39,841 nt of DNA, taken from IMG/VR virus record IMGVR_UViG_2711768002_000004. One strand, given 5' to 3'. The position numbers and the translations under genes are program-made. Positions 154-39,506 of the stretch are shown here, one piece after another; within the stretch, counting starts at the first letter, position 1; the number at the start of each line of letters is the position of its first letter. The notes beneath the pieces are model-generated. The model saw only the letters and a list, made by a program, of their open reading frames with translations. It searched no databases and had not been told where the DNA came from. The DNA comes from a virus. Its lineage: Duplodnaviria; Heunggongvirae; Uroviricota; Caudoviricetes.

Positions 154-560
154 GTAAGCGTGCAGCAAGAACCGTATTGACGGGAATGTGTTATTCAGTC
201 GGCAGTGCTACGCGCCAGGGGAGCAGTTCGCCGACCCGGTTTATCGGCCAGTCGGCTATGACGTCAAGGACATAGCGGAGGTAGCTTTCTGGCTCCACTC
301 CGTTCAGTTTGCACGTCCCGATCAGGCTGTACAGCAGCGCTCCCCGCTCTCCTCCATGATCCGAACCGAAGAACAGGTAGTTTTTGCGGCCCAGACTGAC
401 CATCCGCAACGCATTTTCAGCGATGTTATTGTCCGCCTCAGCCCAGCCATCATCTGCATAGTACGTCAGCGCCGGCCACTGGTTCAGGGCGTATGCGAAC
501 GCTTTCGCCAGTTCTGAGTGTCGCGACAGGGTTTTCATCTTTTCACGCAGCCAGCTTTCC
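154..560 (-). mobile_element. IS66-family insertion sequence, right-hand portion (terminal repeat region plus 3' part of tnpC), cut by the N gap
   Basis: tnpC C-terminal reading frame at 191-560; GTAAGCG motif at 154-160, which I recall as the typical IS66-family terminus (from memory, not verified). Confidence 0.65.
191..560 (-). CDS. tnpC: IS66-family transposase TnpC, C-terminal fragment (frame stays open up to the gap)
   Basis: Translation MKTLSRHSELAKAFAYALNQW...DNNIAENALR...GRKNYLFFGSDHGGERGALLYSLIGTCKLNGVEPESYLRYVLDVIADWPINRVGELLPW matches the conserved C-terminus of IS66 TnpC as I recall it; N-terminal ~400 aa absent from the window. Confidence 0.85.
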
Positions 561-690: not shown

Positions 691-1428
691 TCATTCACTC
701 TCTTTCAAACCAGTTTTAACTGTTTGTGGTTTTGGGTAAGGCTGGACTTTGAATAGCTTTGTGTTAAGGCGTTTTCTGGCTCTCTTGTCCAGAAACCGGA
801 TGTAACGAAACTGACGGAATTTATGAACACTGGCTCTGTCGATATTAGCCCGCAGATGTTCACCTCGCTGTCCTCCTCGTTTGATTGCATTCTTGCAAAT
901 CTCGTGATACCACTCGCCATCAAGTTCATAGAATGTTGTTTCATGACTGCCTACATAATCAAAATTGCTTGCCTGGTACACGACACCAAGACAGCCACAA
1001 CGCTCATCTGCAAACGACTGAACCCACTGCACCTGCGGATAAAGTTGTCTGATTAGTTTGAGCGCGTAACTGATTGCCCTTGATTCGGAGTTTCTCGGCA
1101 TACAGTCATGCAGCCATAACCGGTTAAGCTCCATATATTCGCGGTTCTGCGTGCCAGTTACGACGCGTGCACCATTGTTTGGATTAAGGGCATAACCCCA
1201 TTGCATTACGCCAACCAGCTCCCGTTCTGAAAATATGCCCAGATGAAGGTAGGAATTATTTACGAAACGATGGCTGTAATGTTTATTGACGACGACCAGC
1301 CGGGCCAGCCAGCAACTTATTGTCTCAACCCGTAACTCACGGGAGCCATAACCGACGATATTGTCGTTATAGTGAATAAGTTCAGGCGTGCTGATGATAC
1401 GGGATGTAACTTGCTTTCTGTTCCCCAC
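691..1428 (-). CDS. mom: Mom-like DNA modification protein (start uncertain; GTG at 1428 with AAGGAAA upstream proposed)
   Basis: Long ORF 691-1623 overlaps com in another frame; gene position and the com overlap mirror Mu com-mom. No in-frame ATG downstream of com until far inside the ORF, so an alternative start is inferred. Confidence 0.65.
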
Positions 1429-1582
1429 GACAGGATTTCCTTGTGTATGTGGGGTGCTCTGTGGCGCTCTGAGATGTGATTTGATTGAGGGTTTTACAGC
1501 GCGGACATTTAACTTCCAGATAACTGAAGCTGGCTCGTGCCAGTAGCTTGTTACAATGTCGGCACCGTATGTTTCGATACAT
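1382..1582 (-). CDS. com: Com-like zinc-finger translational activator of mom
   Basis: [34 protein letters not shown]... has the CxxC-(17)-CxxC zinc finger and N-terminal pattern of Mu Com. Start moved to ATG at 1582 (AGGAGG 10 nt upstream); the ORF track start at 1627 is a TTG. Confidence 0.8.
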
Positions 1583-1624
1583 GGCCGCATAACCTCCTGC
1601 TTTGTTGTTGATATCTTTATCACT

Positions 1625-34658: not shown

Positions 34659-34886
34659 TTAGCTGACTTGTTTCGCACCAACAGAACGGCATATTCCGCT
34701 GTAAACTTCTGTCGCACCTTCGCGATCAAGTCCGGCAGATATCACCATTCGTGTGCGGTCATTAAATTCAAAAAGTAAATCGCCACATTCTTTATTTTCG
34801 GCCAGTGAAATCACCTTCACGTTATCGAAATTAACCAGGTAAAAGCGTCCGTAAATATCAGGAATATTAAATACCGCCATAATCAC
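34659..34886 (-). CDS. Small early protein directly downstream of B (position of Mu kil)
   Basis: 75 aa; positional analogy only. Confidence 0.45.
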   Translation of the reverse strand: MIMAVFNIPDIYGRFYLVNFDNVKVISLAENKECGDLLFEFNDRTRMVISAGLDREGATEVYSGICRSVGAKQVS

Positions 34887-35824
34887 ACCTGTGAGAGTAA
34901 TTCAGGGTTGGTATAAACCTCTTTAAAGGCCGCATTAATATGTTTTTCTGTCAGCGCCGCGCCTTCACCGCTGGCGGTGAGCCACGCCTGGTTAAGCGTA
35001 TGTGTCAGAACGCGTAACGCTCCCGGCTTTTCAGCGATAGCCTGCATGACGGCCAGCTCGGCCTCACCACTGATCCCCCACGCCATGGCAATGGCCAGCA
35101 CATCCGCCTTTTTGGCCTTGCGAAGTTGTTTTGTACGGGCAAGACGGCTGAACAGGCGCGATAAATCATCAAAGGCGCGGCGTCCACCTTTAAACAATCC
35201 GCGCGGGTTACCAATAAGCACCATCCCGATCCCCGTGGCGTCCTGAATTGCCCGGAGTTGCTCCAGACCGTCAATACCAAGATGATCCGCCTCATCCACA
35301 ATCACCAGTCCACGCGTTCCCATCAGGCGACGGCGGATGGCGCGGGATAATGCCCCTTTGTTCGCGCGGGTGTAATCAATCCCCAGCGCATCGGCCAGCT
35401 CCAGCAGACACTCCGTGACGCTGGAGTGCGCGGGTGACAGGGTGATCATCCAGGTGTTTGGTTGCTCCTGGCAGTAATTACGGGCAGTGGCCGTTTTACC
35501 CACACCCGGTACGCCCACAATAACGTTAATACAGCCCATCAGGCGAACCGCCTGAAACAGTGCGCGCAGCTCCTGGACTGTCTGAGTTTCCACAAACTGC
35601 GGCGGTTCCGGCAGTGCGCTTTGTTTATTCCAGTTCTCATACCAGGAGCGCAGGGAAGCAGCCACAGCAGCGTTATCGCCTTTATATTTTCCCTTACGGA
35701 AAGCCGATAATGTGCCGTCGGAAATTCCCGCCTCTCTGGCGATGGCATACTGCGTCAGTACGCCGCCATCAATAAGTTCATCAATGGTCTTGATTACATC
35801 GTTAATATCGGTCATATTATTCAC
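34883..35824 (-). CDS. B: Transposition protein B (MuB-like ATP-dependent target DNA activator)
   Basis: 313 aa; P-loop VGVPGVGKTATARNY, DEADHLG, and end-to-end similarity to Mu B as recalled (PEPPQFVETQTV..., KPGALRVL...). Confidence 0.9.
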   Translation of the reverse strand: MNNMTDINDVIKTIDELIDGGVLTQYAIAREAGISDGTLSAFRKGKYKGDNAAVAASLRSWYENWNKQSALPEPPQFVETQTVQELRALFQAVRLMGCINVIVGVPGVGKTATARNYCQEQPNTWMITLSPAHSSVTECLLELADALGIDYTRANKGALSRAIRRRLMGTRGLVIVDEADHLGIDGLEQLRAIQDATGIGMVLIGNPRGLFKGGRRAFDDLSRLFSRLARTKQLRKAKKADVLAIAMAWGISGEAELAVMQAIAEKPGALRVLTHTLNQAWLTASGEGAALTEKHINAAFKEVYTNPELLSQV

Positions 35825-35897: not shown

Positions 35898-37985
35898 TCA
35901 GGCCAGCGGATCACTTTCTTTTAATTTCGCTTCGAGCAGTTGCAATCCCCGCTGGAAATTACGCTCGTATTCTTCATCAGGTTCATCGTCAGCGACCGGT
36001 TGCTGAACGGTCACCGTATTACCCACAGGGCGGTATATGTTTTCCAGCCAGGGCTCCTGCGGCTTGTGCTCCAGCACGTTGACAACCTCATCCTCGGCAT
36101 CACGGATTTTTTCCTCTGCGCGTTTACGCATGCCTTTAAGGCGCTGCTGCTGTTTGTAGTATTCCGCGCTGACAGGGAAGGCTTCGCGTTTATTGCCGTC
36201 CCATACCGCCTCGCAAATCACGCTGCCATCCGGGCGGCGCACGGTAATTCGTTCGGCATCATGAATGTCATAGCTGATAAGTACCTTACGGCCATGCTCG
36301 TCACGCAGCTCGGGCGCGTAGTAAATATTATTCAGCCAGCGTATTTCACAGCGTCTTACAGGGCGCTCCACCATCGGCCGGAACATATCCCGCAGTTCAA
36401 CATCGGACAGCCATTCAATTTCCGTGTCCTCTTCCGCCAGGCGTTTTTTTCTGAACTCCGCCGGGCTGTAATGTTTACCGTTCGGCTTCATGGGTAATTC
36501 ATCGTGCGGCCGGTTGTTGTACCACTCAACACCGTCACGAATGGCATCAATCAGTTCAGACCAGGACGGTAAATCACGCATCGCTGACTGCTGCCGGGCG
36601 TTCAGCCGTTTGCCCTGTTGCAGGGCACTGAATGCCGAGCGTAAATCGCGGTTGGTTTTACGTAACGTCTCGCGATCTGCTCCTTTCCCGAAATAGGTGC
36701 GGTATTTACGGGCTATGCGCATCGGTAATGTGCGGTTAAGCCGTTCGATAATGCCCCGTCCCTGCGGATTACCGGCAATCCCTGTCGGGTGATTAATCCC
36801 CAGTCGTGGCAGTATCCCCACAATCTCCTTATCCAGGACGTCGGCGGTTTCCCCGGAGCCATTATCCGAGTAATACAGAAACGGTTTGCCATGATGGCGA
36901 ATACCGTGCTGTATGGCACCGGCTACGGCGAAAACATTTTCAGCCAGGTCAAGGCTCCAGCCCACCACAAAGCGCGTGCCACCGTCGATAACAAAGGTCA
37001 CTTCCGGTGCGAATGGCCGCCCGTGAACCGGGTGCGCGCATTTCAGCTTCATGCCGTGACCGTCACCAATCCAGACATAATTCACCGGCATTCTGGACCA
37101 GTCGCGGCGCGTGAATCCCTCAAGCTGACGGTATTCACTGCCAGTTACCCGGCCTTTTTGTTTCACCACTTCCGGCAGTTTCTTCATTGCGCGGCGAATG
37201 GTGTCATAAGAGGGCATGATATCGAGCATATAAGGCTCATCAGCGTGCCGGTGCTGCCATTCAGCAACAAAATCCTCGTAAGCCTCGGTCATTGGTCGGC
37301 CGTTTGACTGGCGATACTGCGCCAGAAATTCGGGCAGCCAGTTAATATCTTCGGCTTTTATTTCCTGGCGTTTACCCGGTGCCAGTAAAAGCAGGCGTTC
37401 AGCGGCGTTCTGTGCCTTGTTAAAGGCCGCAATCCAGCGTTTCAGCGTGATTTCACTCAACGCGCGGCTGTTTCCCTTTTTGGCGTTCGCCGTCTCAACC
37501 ATTGCCACAATGCGCTCGTCCAGTTGTGATCGTGCCAGGCTGTTAACGAGGAACCGGATAGCTTTAGCGCAGCTGAAACCGGGTTGTTGCGTGAATTTCA
37601 GCACCTCACTGACGATCGCAATGCGTGCGTCTGCCACCTGGCGCTGGTTTTCAGTCAGGGCATTGAGGCGTTCGACCATCAGTTGTGGTGATCCGCGATA
37701 TGCCTCCACCGCATCAACCACGGCAGACGAGCGTCTGGCCTTTGTCACCACCGGAGCCGGTGATTCATCGGCTTTTTGCGTCATCAGTTGCAGGGCATAA
37801 CGTTCGCGTAATGCCTGCTGTGTCACTTCAGGTAAACAGTCAATGCTGTATTCAAAACCTTTAGCGCCTTTCTTGCGGCGTCTGCTGGTTTCGCTGGTTG
37901 CATACTTCCTGATTGAATAGCGAACGCCTTGCTCCGTTCCCGGCATCCCCGGTAATCCAACCAGTTCTTTAACTGAAGCAAACAT
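35898..37985 (-). CDS. A: DDE transposase (MuA-like)
   Basis: 695 aa; N-terminal VSPKE..LPG-like opening (ASVKELVGLPGMPGT) and position directly after ner. Confidence 0.9.
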   Translation of the reverse strand: MFASVKELVGLPGMPGTEQGVRYSIRKYATSETSRRRKKGAKGFEYSIDCLPEVTQQALRERYALQLMTQKADESPAPVVTKARRSSAVVDAVEAYRGSPQLMVERLNALTENQRQVADARIAIVSEVLKFTQQPGFSCAKAIRFLVNSLARSQLDERIVAMVETANAKKGNSRALSEITLKRWIAAFNKAQNAAERLLLLAPGKRQEIKAEDINWLPEFLAQYRQSNGRPMTEAYEDFVAEWQHRHADEPYMLDIMPSYDTIRRAMKKLPEVVKQKGRVTGSEYRQLEGFTRRDWSRMPVNYVWIGDGHGMKLKCAHPVHGRPFAPEVTFVIDGGTRFVVGWSLDLAENVFAVAGAIQHGIRHHGKPFLYYSDNGSGETADVLDKEIVGILPRLGINHPTGIAGNPQGRGIIERLNRTLPMRIARKYRTYFGKGADRETLRKTNRDLRSAFSALQQGKRLNARQQSAMRDLPSWSELIDAIRDGVEWYNNRPHDELPMKPNGKHYSPAEFRKKRLAEEDTEIEWLSDVELRDMFRPMVERPVRRCEIRWLNNIYYAPELRDEHGRKVLISYDIHDAERITVRRPDGSVICEAVWDGNKREAFPVSAEYYKQQQRLKGMRKRAEEKIRDAEDEVVNVLEHKPQEPWLENIYRPVGNTVTVQQPVADDEPDEEYERNFQRGLQLLEAKLKESDPLA

Positions 37986-37987
37986 AA

Positions 37988-38218
37988 TTACGCGACCTTA
38001 CGAATGTAGCGGCTGGGCCAAATCTCCTCGGGCGGCACCCCCAGGCATTCCGCGATAATCCCCTCATACTTGGGAACATGGCGGTATACCGCGTTGTACA
38101 GATTGTTCTGACCCACGCCAGCTTTACGGGCCAGCGCCCTCATGCTTCCTTCTCTGGCTCTGACTTCCCCCAAAATTCTTTGAGGATGCCAATCAGGCTT
38201 AACTTCATTTCTCGCCAT
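37988..38218 (-). CDS. ner: Ner-like DNA-binding early regulator
   Basis: 76 aa; ...DWHPQRILGEVRAREGSMRALARKAGVGQNNLYNAVYRHVPKYEGIIAECLGVPPEEIWPSRY matches Mu Ner pattern; stop is 2 nt before the A start. Confidence 0.85.
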   Translation of the reverse strand: MARNEVKPDWHPQRILGEVRAREGSMRALARKAGVGQNNLYNAVYRHVPKYEGIIAECLGVPPEEIWPSRYIRKVA

Positions 38219-38403
38219 GATTCATCTATCCTAAAAAGTTACGAAATTTGATAACTAAACTTAGTTATCAAGTTTGATATAAGTATTGATCCACTTCTGC
38301 TTCATGTAAAGCAAAAAAAACATCTTTCTTTTGTCTATTGTGGATCAATGGTTGCTGACAACACTAAAAGTTAATAATTTCAAATTGATAGGAAGAAAAG
38401 AAA
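38219..38403. promoter_or_regulatory. Divergent early control region (repressor / ner promoters and operators)
   Basis: 20-bp palindrome GATAACTAAACTTAGTTATC (38250-38269) flanked by TTTGATA repeats; 9-bp inverted repeat TTGATCCAC / GTGGATCAA (38286-38294 and 38340-38348), both containing GATC. Confidence 0.55.
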
Positions 38404-38949
38404 ATGAACAAGCAAACAACAACATCTCTTTCTTTTCCTGGTGGTAGAAAAGAAAGCATTGCTGAGCGTCTGAAAAGGCTGATTGGCTCCCGCAGCGTCA
38501 GAGCTGCAGCAAGAGATTGGGGGCTTTCATTTTCAACACTAAACAATTATCTGTCTCGTGGCACTGAGCCATCCTTAAGTGTCGCCCTTCAGATTGCGTC
38601 TATCGAAGGAGTAAGTGTTGAGTGGCTATGTGGATTCAGTGATGCATCACAAGTGAATCGGTGTGAGATCAAGGAAAATCAAGATGAAAGCAAGAAGATA
38701 ATTATGACGATTATCAGCGCACTTGATGAAAAAGACTTAGAGCAGCTATCGAAAAATTTGGTTCTGAATGGAGCCAAGTACTTAGCTCGGTTGTTAGAGC
38801 CTGAAAATCAAGATCTAATCCGCTTAGAAGGAAGGAAAAGAATAGCTGCATTACAGCTTGAAGGTATGTCTGACGAACGCGTCAGAGAGATTTTGGAAGA
38901 AACTGAGAGAAGTCGCAAATCTAACGCGGTAGAACCAAAAGCGGGTTAA
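38404..38949 (+). CDS. Prophage repressor, XRE/CI-type helix-turn-helix (functional analogue of Mu c)
   Basis: 181 aa; HTH ...SVRAAARDWGLSFSTLNNYLSRGTEPSLSVALQIASIEGVSVEWL; divergent from ner-A-B; no S24 peptidase motif seen. Confidence 0.75.
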   Translation: MNKQTTTSLSFPGGRKESIAERLKRLIGSRSVRAAARDWGLSFSTLNNYLSRGTEPSLSVALQIASIEGVSVEWLCGFSDASQVNRCEIKENQDESKKIIMTIISALDEKDLEQLSKNLVLNGAKYLARLLEPENQDLIRLEGRKRIAALQLEGMSDERVREILEETERSRKSNAVEPKAG

Positions 38950-39185
38950 TAGCATTAGCCCGCATTTTGCACTATATCGAGTATTTCGCATTGTTTGGAA
39001 CGCCTTAAAAGACTAAAACCACAGTATCAAATGAGTTGCCGATTTTATAATAAATGACTAATTATTGCACAATCGGTATCAAATAGACCTTATCCGCACA
39101 TCTAGCCATCACCTGTTTTATTTCAGTATCTTACAGGTGATTTCACCTCCTTTCACTAAACCCCTTGTCGGTATCAAATGATTCA
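38950..39185 (-). repeat. Prophage left end with three transposase-binding-like direct repeats
   Basis: (C)GGTATCAAAT at 39023-39032, 39074-39084 and 39169-39179; on the phage strand the element would begin 5'-TGAATCATTTGATACCG. Confidence 0.6.
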
Positions 39186-39506
39186 CCTGGTTATATGTCG
39201 CCAGTCGATACCTTCCAGCAGCATCGCCAGCTGCGCCTGTGTAAGGAACACTTTGCCATCACGGGCTGACGGCCAGGCGAAGCGCCCACGCTCCAGCCGT
39301 TTGGTCAGGAGGCACAGTCCGTCACTGGTGGACCACAGCAGTTTAACCTGACTGCCGCTGCGGCCCCGGAAAATGAAAACATGGCCGGACATGGGATCGT
39401 CTTTCAGCGCCGTCTGTACTTTCGCAGCCAGGCCGTTGAAGCCATTTCTCATATCGGTGATACCGGCAACCAGCCAAATTTTGATCCCGGAAGGTAACGG
39501 GATCAT
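39183..39506 (-). CDS. tnpB: IS66-family TnpB (orf2); 3' end apparently fused to the prophage terminus
   Basis: MIPLPSGIKIWLVAGITDMRNGFNGLAAKVQTALKDDPMSGHVFIFRGRSGSQVKLLWSTSDGLCLLTKRLERGRFAWP...; stop codon TGA (39185-39183) coincides with the putative TG terminus of the prophage. Confidence 0.85.
   Translation of the reverse strand: MIPLPSGIKIWLVAGITDMRNGFNGLAAKVQTALKDDPMSGHVFIFRGRSGSQVKLLWSTSDGLCLLTKRLERGRFAWPSARDGKVFLTQAQLAMLLEGIDWRHITR

Follow-up and report, generated by a model that had tools for sequence, protein, structure and literature searches.

The DNA analysed here, hereafter the window, is a stretch of 39,841 nucleotides from a tailed-virus record (Caudoviricetes; IMG/VR IMGVR_UViG_2711768002_000004), and our subject is a 185-bp intergenic region within it (positions 38219 to 38403; 27.6% G+C) that lies between a ner gene and a divergently oriented repressor gene. 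The ner gene (37988-38218, minus strand; 76 amino acids) is the first gene of the early operon; its product matches Pfam HTH_35 (1e-21) and is 45% identical to Mu Ner. Downstream of it lie genes for a Mu-type transposase (35898-37985, minus strand; Pfam HTH_Tnp_Mu_1 and Mu-transpos_C) and a MuB-type ATPase (34883-35824; Pfam Phage-MuB_C). The N-terminal Mu-type winged-helix region of the transposase (residues 6-141, HTH_Tnp_Mu_1, encoded at 37563-37970 on the minus strand) has a counterpart that binds the enhancer in Mu. On the other side, the repressor gene (38404-38949, plus strand) encodes 181 amino acids: an XRE helix-turn-helix at residues 19-75, a Mu c-type C-terminal domain at about residues 94-178, and a tail ending in PKAG. 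By open reading frames and Pfam matches the locus has the composition of a Mu-type early control module, with a repressor divergent from ner-A-B near the left end and a Ner homologue; the prophage left end falls at about 39193, some 245 bp past the repressor stop codon. Taking the switch, the Ner sites, the chimeric repressor, the operator O_E, and the enhancer repeats described below as a single explanation, we think it probable that the region serves a Mu-like transposing prophage as its lysis/lysogeny switch, with the layout of Mu kept and a different DNA-binding head on the repressor. The pairings of proteins with sites proposed below all derive from comparative sequence analysis.

An earlier note on this DNA had assigned the repressor to the XRE/CI type rather than to the winged-helix fold of Mu c, and Pfam matches of homologues, structural superposition, and the profile search for the Mu domain bear this out. 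The protein's own Pfam matches are weak and below threshold (HTH_3, 2e-4; Phage_CI_repr, 7e-3); its homologues form 93 protein clusters, many of which pass both HTH_3 and Phage_CI_repr, and it belongs to phrog_3037 (4.5e-60). Modelled with AlphaFold from 41 aligned sequences, the protein is all-helical throughout, the C-terminal half included, and the model is confident over residues 19 to 75, with a predicted local distance difference test score (pLDDT) of 85 to 88. Foldseek searches of the PDB with these residues returned XRE-type domains only, among them P22 c2, 434 Cro, SinR, DdrO, and ImmR, at root mean square deviations (rmsd) of 1.5 to 2.0 Å over about 60 residues; by sequence, the PDB gave one weak match, to the N-terminal domain of TP901-1 CI (E=0.37). 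No match to PF02316, the Mu DNA-binding domain, was found on the repressor, whereas the transposase carries one. Compared with Mu c by BLASTP, the repressor gives no significant match and no likeness to the Mu c DNA-binding domain.

The C-terminal part points to Mu. Residues 94 to 178 match phrog_7148 at 1.2e-4, and two relatives do so at 2e-10 and 5e-6; phrog_7148 is the Mu c family, in which Mu c itself scores 6.9e-73. Reciprocally, Mu c residues 90 to 185 match phrog_3037 at 1.1e-4, and aligning the two family profiles with hhalign yields E=5e-5 with a probability of 67% over 78 columns. Both families end in a conserved K-A-V/G/S tail, ...KAG in the repressor and ...KKAV in Mu c, and a Pfam search for Peptidase_S24 gave no repressor match at E≤0.1. 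With an XRE head, a C terminus homologous to Mu c, and no S24 domain, the repressor is, judged by these sequence comparisons, a chimera that joins an XRE head to the C-terminal 85 residues of the Mu c type, and not a lambda CI. The head would thus sit on a Mu c-type domain ending in a K-x-A-G tail. In Mu, the C-terminal domain of c carries oligomerisation. Mu c also has a C-terminal ClpX determinant (PMC10584840), and the tail of the chimera may likewise place it under ClpXP control. The same helix-turn-helix subfamily is found in Vibrio phage genes that are annotated as S24 peptidase, suggesting that repressor heads and tails have been shuffled.

To place the locus among its relatives, we scanned one genome per species and obtained 34 loci encoding repressor homologues; further loci from E. 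coli, Shigella, Yersinia-phage, and metagenome sequences brought the set to about 40 related loci in all. A divergent ner accompanies the repressor gene in 30 of the 34, and in at least 21 a Mu-type transposase gene is present too within the fetched flank. The family spans Escherichia, Yersinia, Klebsiella, Serratia, Sodalis, Morganella, and other genera. Its intergenic regions align over about 180 bp and have one architecture, which reads, from ner to the repressor gene, as a conserved ner ribosome-binding block; four GATAA-type half-sites making two 16-bp palindromes, typically TTATCC-N4-GGATAA, 26 bp apart centre to centre; AGTATTGATCCA, containing the −10 hexamer of the early promoter Pe (AATACT); about 9 variable bases; CATGTAAAGCAAA, containing the Pe −35 (TTTACA); CTTTCTTTTG; about 50 variable bases; TATAATCAATnnGTTA; and AGGAAAAGAAA-ATG. 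The graft onto a Mu-like module that the earlier note suggested is no isolated case; a large family of Mu-like prophages in Enterobacterales has this layout as its standard. The exact immunity type of the window was found in 12 of 5426 complete E. coli genomes, and related types are widespread; family searches returned 93 protein clusters for the XRE-headed type versus 24 for Mu c. XRE-headed repressors apparently mark a large group of enterobacterial Mu-like prophages, the commoner of the two, which includes that of E. coli O157:H7.

The predicted Pe lies at 38282-38310 on the minus strand, with a −35 hexamer TTTACA (38310-38305), a 17-bp spacer, and a −10 hexamer AATACT (38287-38282). It is the only sigma-70-like site detected in the region, and its hexamers and spacing are kept across the family alignment; Mu Pe likewise has GCTTTACA at its −35. 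From this predicted promoter, transcription would run leftward into ner-A-B. Just upstream of the −35, an A-tract (38311-38320) resembling an UP element belongs to an AT-rich block that is conserved in the alignment and may serve that function.

Both palindromic elements reported in the earlier note exist, at sizes somewhat larger than those it gave. The larger, described as 20 bp, is a perfect palindrome of 11+2+11, or 24 bp (TTGATAACTAA-AC-TTAGTTATCAA, 38248-38271), that extends to 15-nt arms at 93%; the GATC inverted repeat, described as 9 nt, has arms of 10. When the region was shuffled 5000 times with its dinucleotides preserved, arms of 11 nt or more around a short spacer arose with P=0.0016, and the 6 occurrences of TTGAT/ATCAA in 185 bp had P=0.0002. 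The further copies of the half-sites for which the earlier note proposed a motif search did not appear: neither the 24-bp palindrome nor the GATC repeat has additional copies beyond chance elsewhere in the 39.8-kb window.

Comparison with relatives suggests that the 24-bp palindrome is not a unit. It comprises the inner halves of two 16-bp palindromic sites together with a 10-bp spacer, CTAAACTTAG, which seems to be palindromic here by chance. Site 1 (38239-38254; TTAcgAA-AT-TTGATAA) is imperfect and is the positional homologue of TTATCC-N4-GGATAA in the relatives; it is unaltered in L002 and L038, two prophages whose Ner is identical to that of the window. Site 2 (38265-38280; TTATCAA-GT-TTGATAt) has its centre 26 bp from that of site 1 and spans the predicted Pe start. 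In L002 and L038 the outer 8 bp of the palindrome, TTGATAAC/GTTATCAA, are invariant, while the inner bases read CTAA-AT-TTTG in L002 and CCAA-AG-TTAG in L038, indicating that the functional units are the half-sites rather than the long palindrome.

These two sites are most likely Ner operators, an assignment made from their position, their covariation with the Ner helix, and natural recombinants. As to position, the predicted Pe start is where the sites begin; in Mu, the inverted repeat for Ner, AGCTAGCTAAGT-TTTTAC-ACTTAGTTAAAT, occupies the same place directly downstream of Pe and lies between features annotated as part of the Ner binding region. As to covariation, the half-site type follows the putative Ner recognition helix, with QNNLYN accompanying TGATAA, QDSLKN or PDTLKN accompanying GGATAA, and SSTLKN accompanying GGGTAA; the recognition helix of the repressor, S-T-L-N-N-Y, is invariant or nearly so in 41 sequences. 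The recombinants are of two kinds. At the DNA level L002 is 95% identical to the window in ner (the protein being identical) and 95% in the Ner-site block, 80% in the block containing Pe and O_E, and 63% in the repressor gene (43% at the protein level). Conversely, L040, L042, and L044 are 62 to 65% identical to the window in ner and 52 to 59% in the Ner-site block, against 83 to 90% in the Pe/O_E block and 65 to 69% in the repressor gene. The repressors of these three loci have the same helix-turn-helix as that of the window and 64 to 69% protein identity to it, whereas their Ner is of the type of the Yersinia phage locus L003, to which they are 73 to 97% identical in ner and 86 to 95% in the Ner-site block; the mosaic joint lies at the Pe −10. 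We propose that Ner, a Cro-like protein, binds 38239-54 and 38265-80, sites that begin at the Pe transcription start.

The GATC repeat is perfect over 10 nt, with ATTGATCCAC at 38285-38294 and GTGGATCAAT at 38340-38349, 45 nt apart, and we hold it to be real because it is conserved in relatives. Its left arm falls in the left half of an element that fills the Pe spacer exactly (38287-38304; TGATCCAC-TT-cTGcTTCA) and that we propose as the repressor operator, O_E. The general form of O_E is an 18-bp palindrome, TGATCCAC-NN-GTGGATCA, with conserved outer bases TGATC...TCA. In L044 the palindrome is perfect (TGATCCAC-TT-GTGGATCA, or TGATCCACTTGTGGATCA), and it is nearly so in L040 (TGATCCACTTGTGGGTCA), L006 (TGATCCACAAGTGAGTCA), L017 (TGATCTCTTTTGAGATAA), and L013. 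The high identity of the O_E block in L040, L042, and L044 is maintained despite a foreign ner. Every locus with the STLNNY helix has the outer TGATC, even the three ner-repressor pairs without a transposase (L013, L017, and L028). It is absent from the O157:H7 prophage L045, which has the helix ININTLNSY and in which Pe is flanked instead by the inverted repeat CCAAAAATACC/GGTATTTTTGG. Residues that follow helix 3 track the inner bases of O_E, PSLxVA occurring with CCAC and PSFxAM with CCAA. The operators of P22 are 18-bp palindromes whose inner bases tune the strength of binding by way of the helix 3-4 loop region, and the covariation seen here suggests a P22-like inner-base pattern. On this comparative evidence O_E is most likely the operator of the repressor. 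GATC occurs within both arms of the repeat, at 38288-38291 and 38343-38346, and the left one is conserved in most relatives.

The right arm (GTGGATCAAT, 38340-38349), which immediately follows the CTTTCTTTTG block, repeats the left half of O_E by itself and in inverted orientation, and is retained in L038, L040, L042, L044, L006, and L007 whatever their Ner type. As a lone inverted half that is kept in relatives and whose covariation with O_E is marginal, it is read here as an auxiliary half-site, which the repressor could engage by oligomerising through its Mu c-type C-terminal domain. The repressor would then bind 38287-38304 plus the distal half-site 55 bp upstream (38340-47), and would shut Pe by occlusion, probably aided by oligomerisation or looping.

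The earlier note had seen the palindrome and the GATC repeat alike as operators of the XRE-type repressor, in a lambda-like logic, which would mean several adjacent dimer sites serving two divergent promoters. We consider this unlikely, even though the repressor does have a Cro/CI-type helix-turn-helix, a TTGAT core is common to all the elements and TTGAT/ATCAA is enriched six-fold, and the palindrome is highly significant in shuffles. Loci with the same repressor helix-turn-helix and another Ner have an entirely different sequence at the position of the palindrome, L002 keeps the half-sites with an identical Ner and a repressor only 43% identical, and across the family the half-sites vary while the recognition helix of the repressor is nearly invariant. 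The half-sites, then, follow ner rather than the repressor, and the 24-bp palindrome is probably not a repressor operator. Nor does the rest of the arrangement support a lambda-like logic. The repressor has no S24 domain and a Mu c-homologous C terminus, and resemblance to Mu extends to the promoter scaffold, to Ner and where its sites lie, to the CTTTT-type repeats, and to a transposase with an exchangeable N terminus. Lambda has tandem adjacent palindromic operators that its repressor binds cooperatively and that are shared with Cro; the window has one 18-bp palindromic site in the Pe spacer with a distal half-site, the other palindromes following Ner. Of the earlier suggestion that the region contains repressor operators, the part concerning the GATC element stands, since only this element appears to behave as one; the large palindrome tracks ner.

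There is a rather small chance, in our estimation, that the GATC repeat is no repressor site at all, and is instead a promoter or Dam-methylation feature or the site of a host factor or the transposase, its right arm being a chance match. Such a reading would account for the P value of 0.05 obtained for the 10-nt repeat alone and for the weak result of the arm covariation test; moreover, the left arm overlaps promoter elements that would be conserved anyway, and GATC is conserved in most loci. It does not account for conservation that continues across the promoter spacer, a stretch not read by RNA polymerase, or for an element that is an 18-bp palindrome in several lineages. In L045 the element is lost together with the change of recognition helix while the promoter-like arrangement stays, and the right arm is kept in six relatives amid diverged surroundings. 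These observations favour O_E as a target of the repressor.

A further set of elements extends from upstream of Pe into the repressor gene. Five CTTT[T/A][C/T/G] elements lie in 38311-38456, a density of 3.1 per 100 nt versus 0.35 for the whole window (a nine-fold enrichment); the corresponding figures for the Mu O1/O2 region are 5.3 versus 0.8. Family alignment and enrichment single out a first copy of the CTTTCTTTTG repeat at 38324-38333 on the plus strand. An inverted copy, AAAAGAAA, at 38396-38403 on the minus strand overlaps the repressor ribosome-binding site, and CTTTCTTTTC-N9-GAAAAGAAAG at 38428-38456 is a perfect 10-nt inverted repeat inside codons 9 to 18 of the repressor gene. Over these codons the DNA is kept family-wide while the amino acids change: F/L/I/V-S/A-F/L is written (T/C/A/G)TT-(T/G)CT-TT(T/G), Leu within the repeats is CTT or TTG, and the Ser of K-E-S is always AGY. 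Judged from this codon pattern, the repeats inside the coding region are under constraint at the DNA level, as is Mu O1 inside c.

The repeats also go with the transposase. TTTCTTT/AAAGAAA is found in 2 to 7 copies in loci that have the transposase N terminus of the window (N termini were compared for part of the loci) and in 0 to 1 copies in the three pairs that lack a transposase, as well as in L045 and L046, both of which have other transposase N termini. The L045 transposase (E. coli O157:H7 FRIK2455, 564-2654) is 94% identical to that of the window, with its first 45 or so residues strongly diverged, suggesting that the N-terminal DNA-binding part, which contacts the enhancer in Mu and is encoded by the 5′ end of the gene, was swapped along with the immunity region. 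In Mu, an AT-rich segment adjoining c contains the enhancer, which is bound by the transposase (PMC5977238; PMC3820752). By analogy, the most likely role of the CTTTCTTTT repeats (38324-38456) is that of transposition enhancer, and they would be read by the Mu-type N-terminal domain of the transposase. The chance is slim that they are instead the operators of the repressor, as CTTTT repeats are for Mu c, with the TGATC element serving another protein. The repeats are conserved along with a nearly invariant repressor helix, and their layout mirrors Mu O1/O2 down to the copies in the repressor 5′ coding region. However, the three transposase-less pairs have kept the recognition helix and TGATC and have lost the repeats, and a pyrimidine-tract repeat in mixed orientation is an atypical target for a dimeric XRE helix-turn-helix. 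The CTTTTC/CTTTAC core common to these repeats and the Mu sites is read in Mu by winged-helix domains, and in the window only the transposase has such a domain.

That the 24-bp palindrome, rather than being a protein site, works as a hairpin in the 5′ leader RNA of ner-A-B, acting on stability, translation, or attenuation, is highly improbable: it does lie downstream of the predicted Pe start and folds stably (−7.8 kcal/mol as DNA, z=−4.1), but its inner stem is not kept in relatives with an identical Ner (L002 has a mismatch, and L038 a single change that may allow a G-U wobble), most of the family has a non-complementary 10-bp spacer between the inner half-sites that leaves short stems only, and an Rfam scan gave no match. 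Also considered and rejected was a TAACTAA core, common to the palindrome and the Mu Ner inverted repeat, as a sign of homologous Ner sites; the inner bases are unconserved in relatives with the same Ner, and the half-site spacing differs.

Several points weigh against our interpretation of the locus as a switch with Ner sites, O_E, and enhancer repeats. The homology of the C-terminal domain to Mu c is seen at the profile level only, BLASTP being not significant and the hhalign probability 67%. Each site block adjoins the gene with which it travels, so the recombinant pattern could reflect linkage alone. The correlation between Ner helix and half-site is imperfect, since PDTLKN occurs with GGATAA and also with GGGTAA/GGTTAA, and the Ner-type half-site of this lineage, TTGATAAC, is similar to that of the repressor, TTGATCCAC, making cross-binding possible. 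The GATC repeat alone is not significant in the shuffles (P=0.05), O_E has a degenerate right half (5/8) in the window, and the covariation between the arms of O_E and the distal site is marginal (P=0.04 in a family-wide permutation test), ATCAA-containing elements being common to all loci. Both the PSL/PSF covariation and the loss of repeats from the transposase-less pairs may each represent a single evolutionary event, a split in the former case. Finally, a promoter search and manual inspection of the region gave no acceptable sigma-70 promoter for the repressor gene, and the exact consensus for integration host factor (IHF) is absent from the window, which has a degenerate version only (TTTCAAATTGATA, 38378-38390, plus strand). 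The exact consensus, WATCAANNNNTTR, stands at −25/−26 from the repressor ATG in 10 relatives, and Mu carries TTATCAACGCGTTAA adjoining the start of c. TAATAAT at 38372-78 was considered as a −10 for the repressor gene and set aside; it aligns with TATAAT in relatives but has no −35.

Set beside Mu, the window has divergent repressor and ner-A-B genes about 0.8 to 1 kb from the left end, a Ner that is 45% identical, GCTTTACA at the Pe −35, an inverted repeat directly downstream of Pe, CTTTT-type repeats that reach into the repressor 5′ coding region, a transposase with the Mu N-terminal winged-helix domain, and a homologous repressor C-terminal domain and K-A-x tail. It differs in the head of the repressor, an XRE helix-turn-helix in place of the PF02316 winged helix, so that repressor and transposase no longer share a DNA-binding fold. 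It also differs in the putative operator, an 18-bp TGATC...GATCA palindrome in the Pe spacer where Mu has direct CTTTT repeats, and in Ner half-sites and spacing that are unlike those of Mu. D108 and SfMu, heteroimmune relatives of Mu, keep a winged-helix repressor; the N terminus of the transposase differs between Mu and D108, and a module boundary like that of Mu/D108 is seen between the window and L045. The c and Ner proteins of SfMu are 89% and 98% identical to those of D108, and 24% and 47% identical to those of Mu (PMC4406740).

Closer relatives of the repressor are found in the Yersinia phages vB_YpM_5/6 (Muvirus) and in the Mu-like prophage L045 of E. coli O157:H7 (52.5% and 42% identical, respectively), which have the same gene order and intergenic architecture but other immunity specificities, with other Ner sites and another operator sequence; L045 in addition has another recognition helix and another transposase N terminus, and it is also found inserted in Stx phages. 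The left-end gene of the Yersinia phage was named "C-repressor" from its position, without analysis (PMC10434027), and no operator analysis of vB_YpM_5/6 or of the O157:H7 prophage was found in the literature searched. Residues 1 to 76 of the window repressor are 35 to 43% identical to left-end repressors of Mu-like phages of Pseudomonas, Shewanella, and Vibrio. The matching Vibrio phage genes are annotated as peptidase S24/S26A/S26B, whereas the window protein has a Mu c-type helical domain and no S24. For the Pseudomonas transposable phages B3, D3112, and Fc02, a lambda CI-like repressor with a Cro/CI-type helix-turn-helix has been described alongside a ner homologue, their divergent promoters overlapping (PMC9936078). 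In structure the N-terminal domain comes closest to the repressors of P22 (c2) and 434 (rmsd 1.5 to 1.7 Å), but these have no sequence likeness to it beyond the fold, another C-terminal domain, and three adjacent operators where the window has one putative full site and a distal half-site.

The switch of Mu is usually explained by a repressor and a transposase that share one DNA-binding fold and compete for the same operator/enhancer sites. In the family described here the promoter scaffold of Mu, Ner, the enhancer-like repeats, and the tail of the repressor would all have been kept, with the DNA-binding head replaced by an XRE helix-turn-helix. It would be a natural example of domains being exchanged inside a genetic switch, and the analysis gives concrete site assignments for an unstudied immunity system. 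The concept is not new, because a Cro/CI-type repressor with ner has already been described in Pseudomonas and the family is carried by Yersinia Muvirus phages; this is not a new kind of system but a common variant of a known switch. The chimera of XRE head and Mu c tail, the site assignments, and the breadth of the family appear undescribed in the literature searched. A more speculative proposal, which as a whole we rate as possible but doubtful, is that repressor and transposase have become uncoupled. Under it, the enhancer (CTTTCTTTT, partly within the repressor gene) would be read by the transposase only, and the repressor would control Pe through the separate GATC-containing 18-bp operator. 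Immunity specificity would come from residues after helix 3 that read the inner bases and not from the invariant recognition helix. With GATC in both arms and in the conserved half-site, binding of the repressor could also be sensitive to, and modulated by, Dam methylation; if so, derepression of the transposing prophage would be linked to passage of the replication fork.

Among the relatives, a further immunity type was observed in E. coli (L046, protein P0034). It has the same Mu c-like C-terminal domain, a different XRE head, its own Ner, and its own, more Mu-like transposase N terminus, and its repeats, AACCTGAAAA/TTTTCAGGTT, resemble the CTTTTCAGTAAT sites of Mu. The three loci L013, L017, and L028, in Citrobacter amalonaticus and Enterobacter spp., consist of ner-like and XRE-repressor-like genes with the conserved TGATC element, and lack both a transposase and CTTTCTTTT repeats. 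A gene for a large membrane transporter lies next to the pair in L017 and L028, with an apparent lysyl-tRNA synthetase gene on the other side in L017, and such a pair may be a domesticated regulatory one. The Sodalis metagenome-assembled genome C12_2 has 12 copies or fragments of the module (L020-L022, L025-L027, L029, L031, L032, and L035-L037), several of them decayed, and a Serratia symbiotica copy (L023) has an in-frame stop in the repressor helix-turn-helix, which suggests that Mu-like elements have multiplied and decayed in insect symbionts.

The left end of the prophage (39021-39193) has three repeats of ATTTGATACCGA, which are of the kind bound by the transposase at the ends of the element. 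They lie on the minus strand at 39168-79, 39073-84, and 39021-32, 14, 109, and 161 bp from the end; two are exact and the third has 2 mismatches, and we take their spacing to resemble that of the L1, L2, and L3 transposase sites of Mu attL. A search of the right end for an inverted copy of the left-end sequence found none, and the right end is probably in or beside a masked run of N at 562-682. It is marked by a Mom-family gene (691-1623, minus strand; 310 amino acids; Pfam Mom, 1.6e-77), the Mom domain of which covers residues 96 to 298, with about 95 N-terminal residues lying outside it. Mom expression in Mu is Dam-dependent, and the Mom homologue is encoded by the same prophage as the GATC-containing arms. 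An IS66-family tnpB (39183-39506; Pfam TnpB_IS66, 1.2e-37) is truncated by the left end at about 39193, and at the other side of the window (191-538), before the masked run, there is a C-terminal fragment only of IS66 TnpC, indicating that the prophage lies in or next to a disrupted IS66 element from which most of tnpC is gone.

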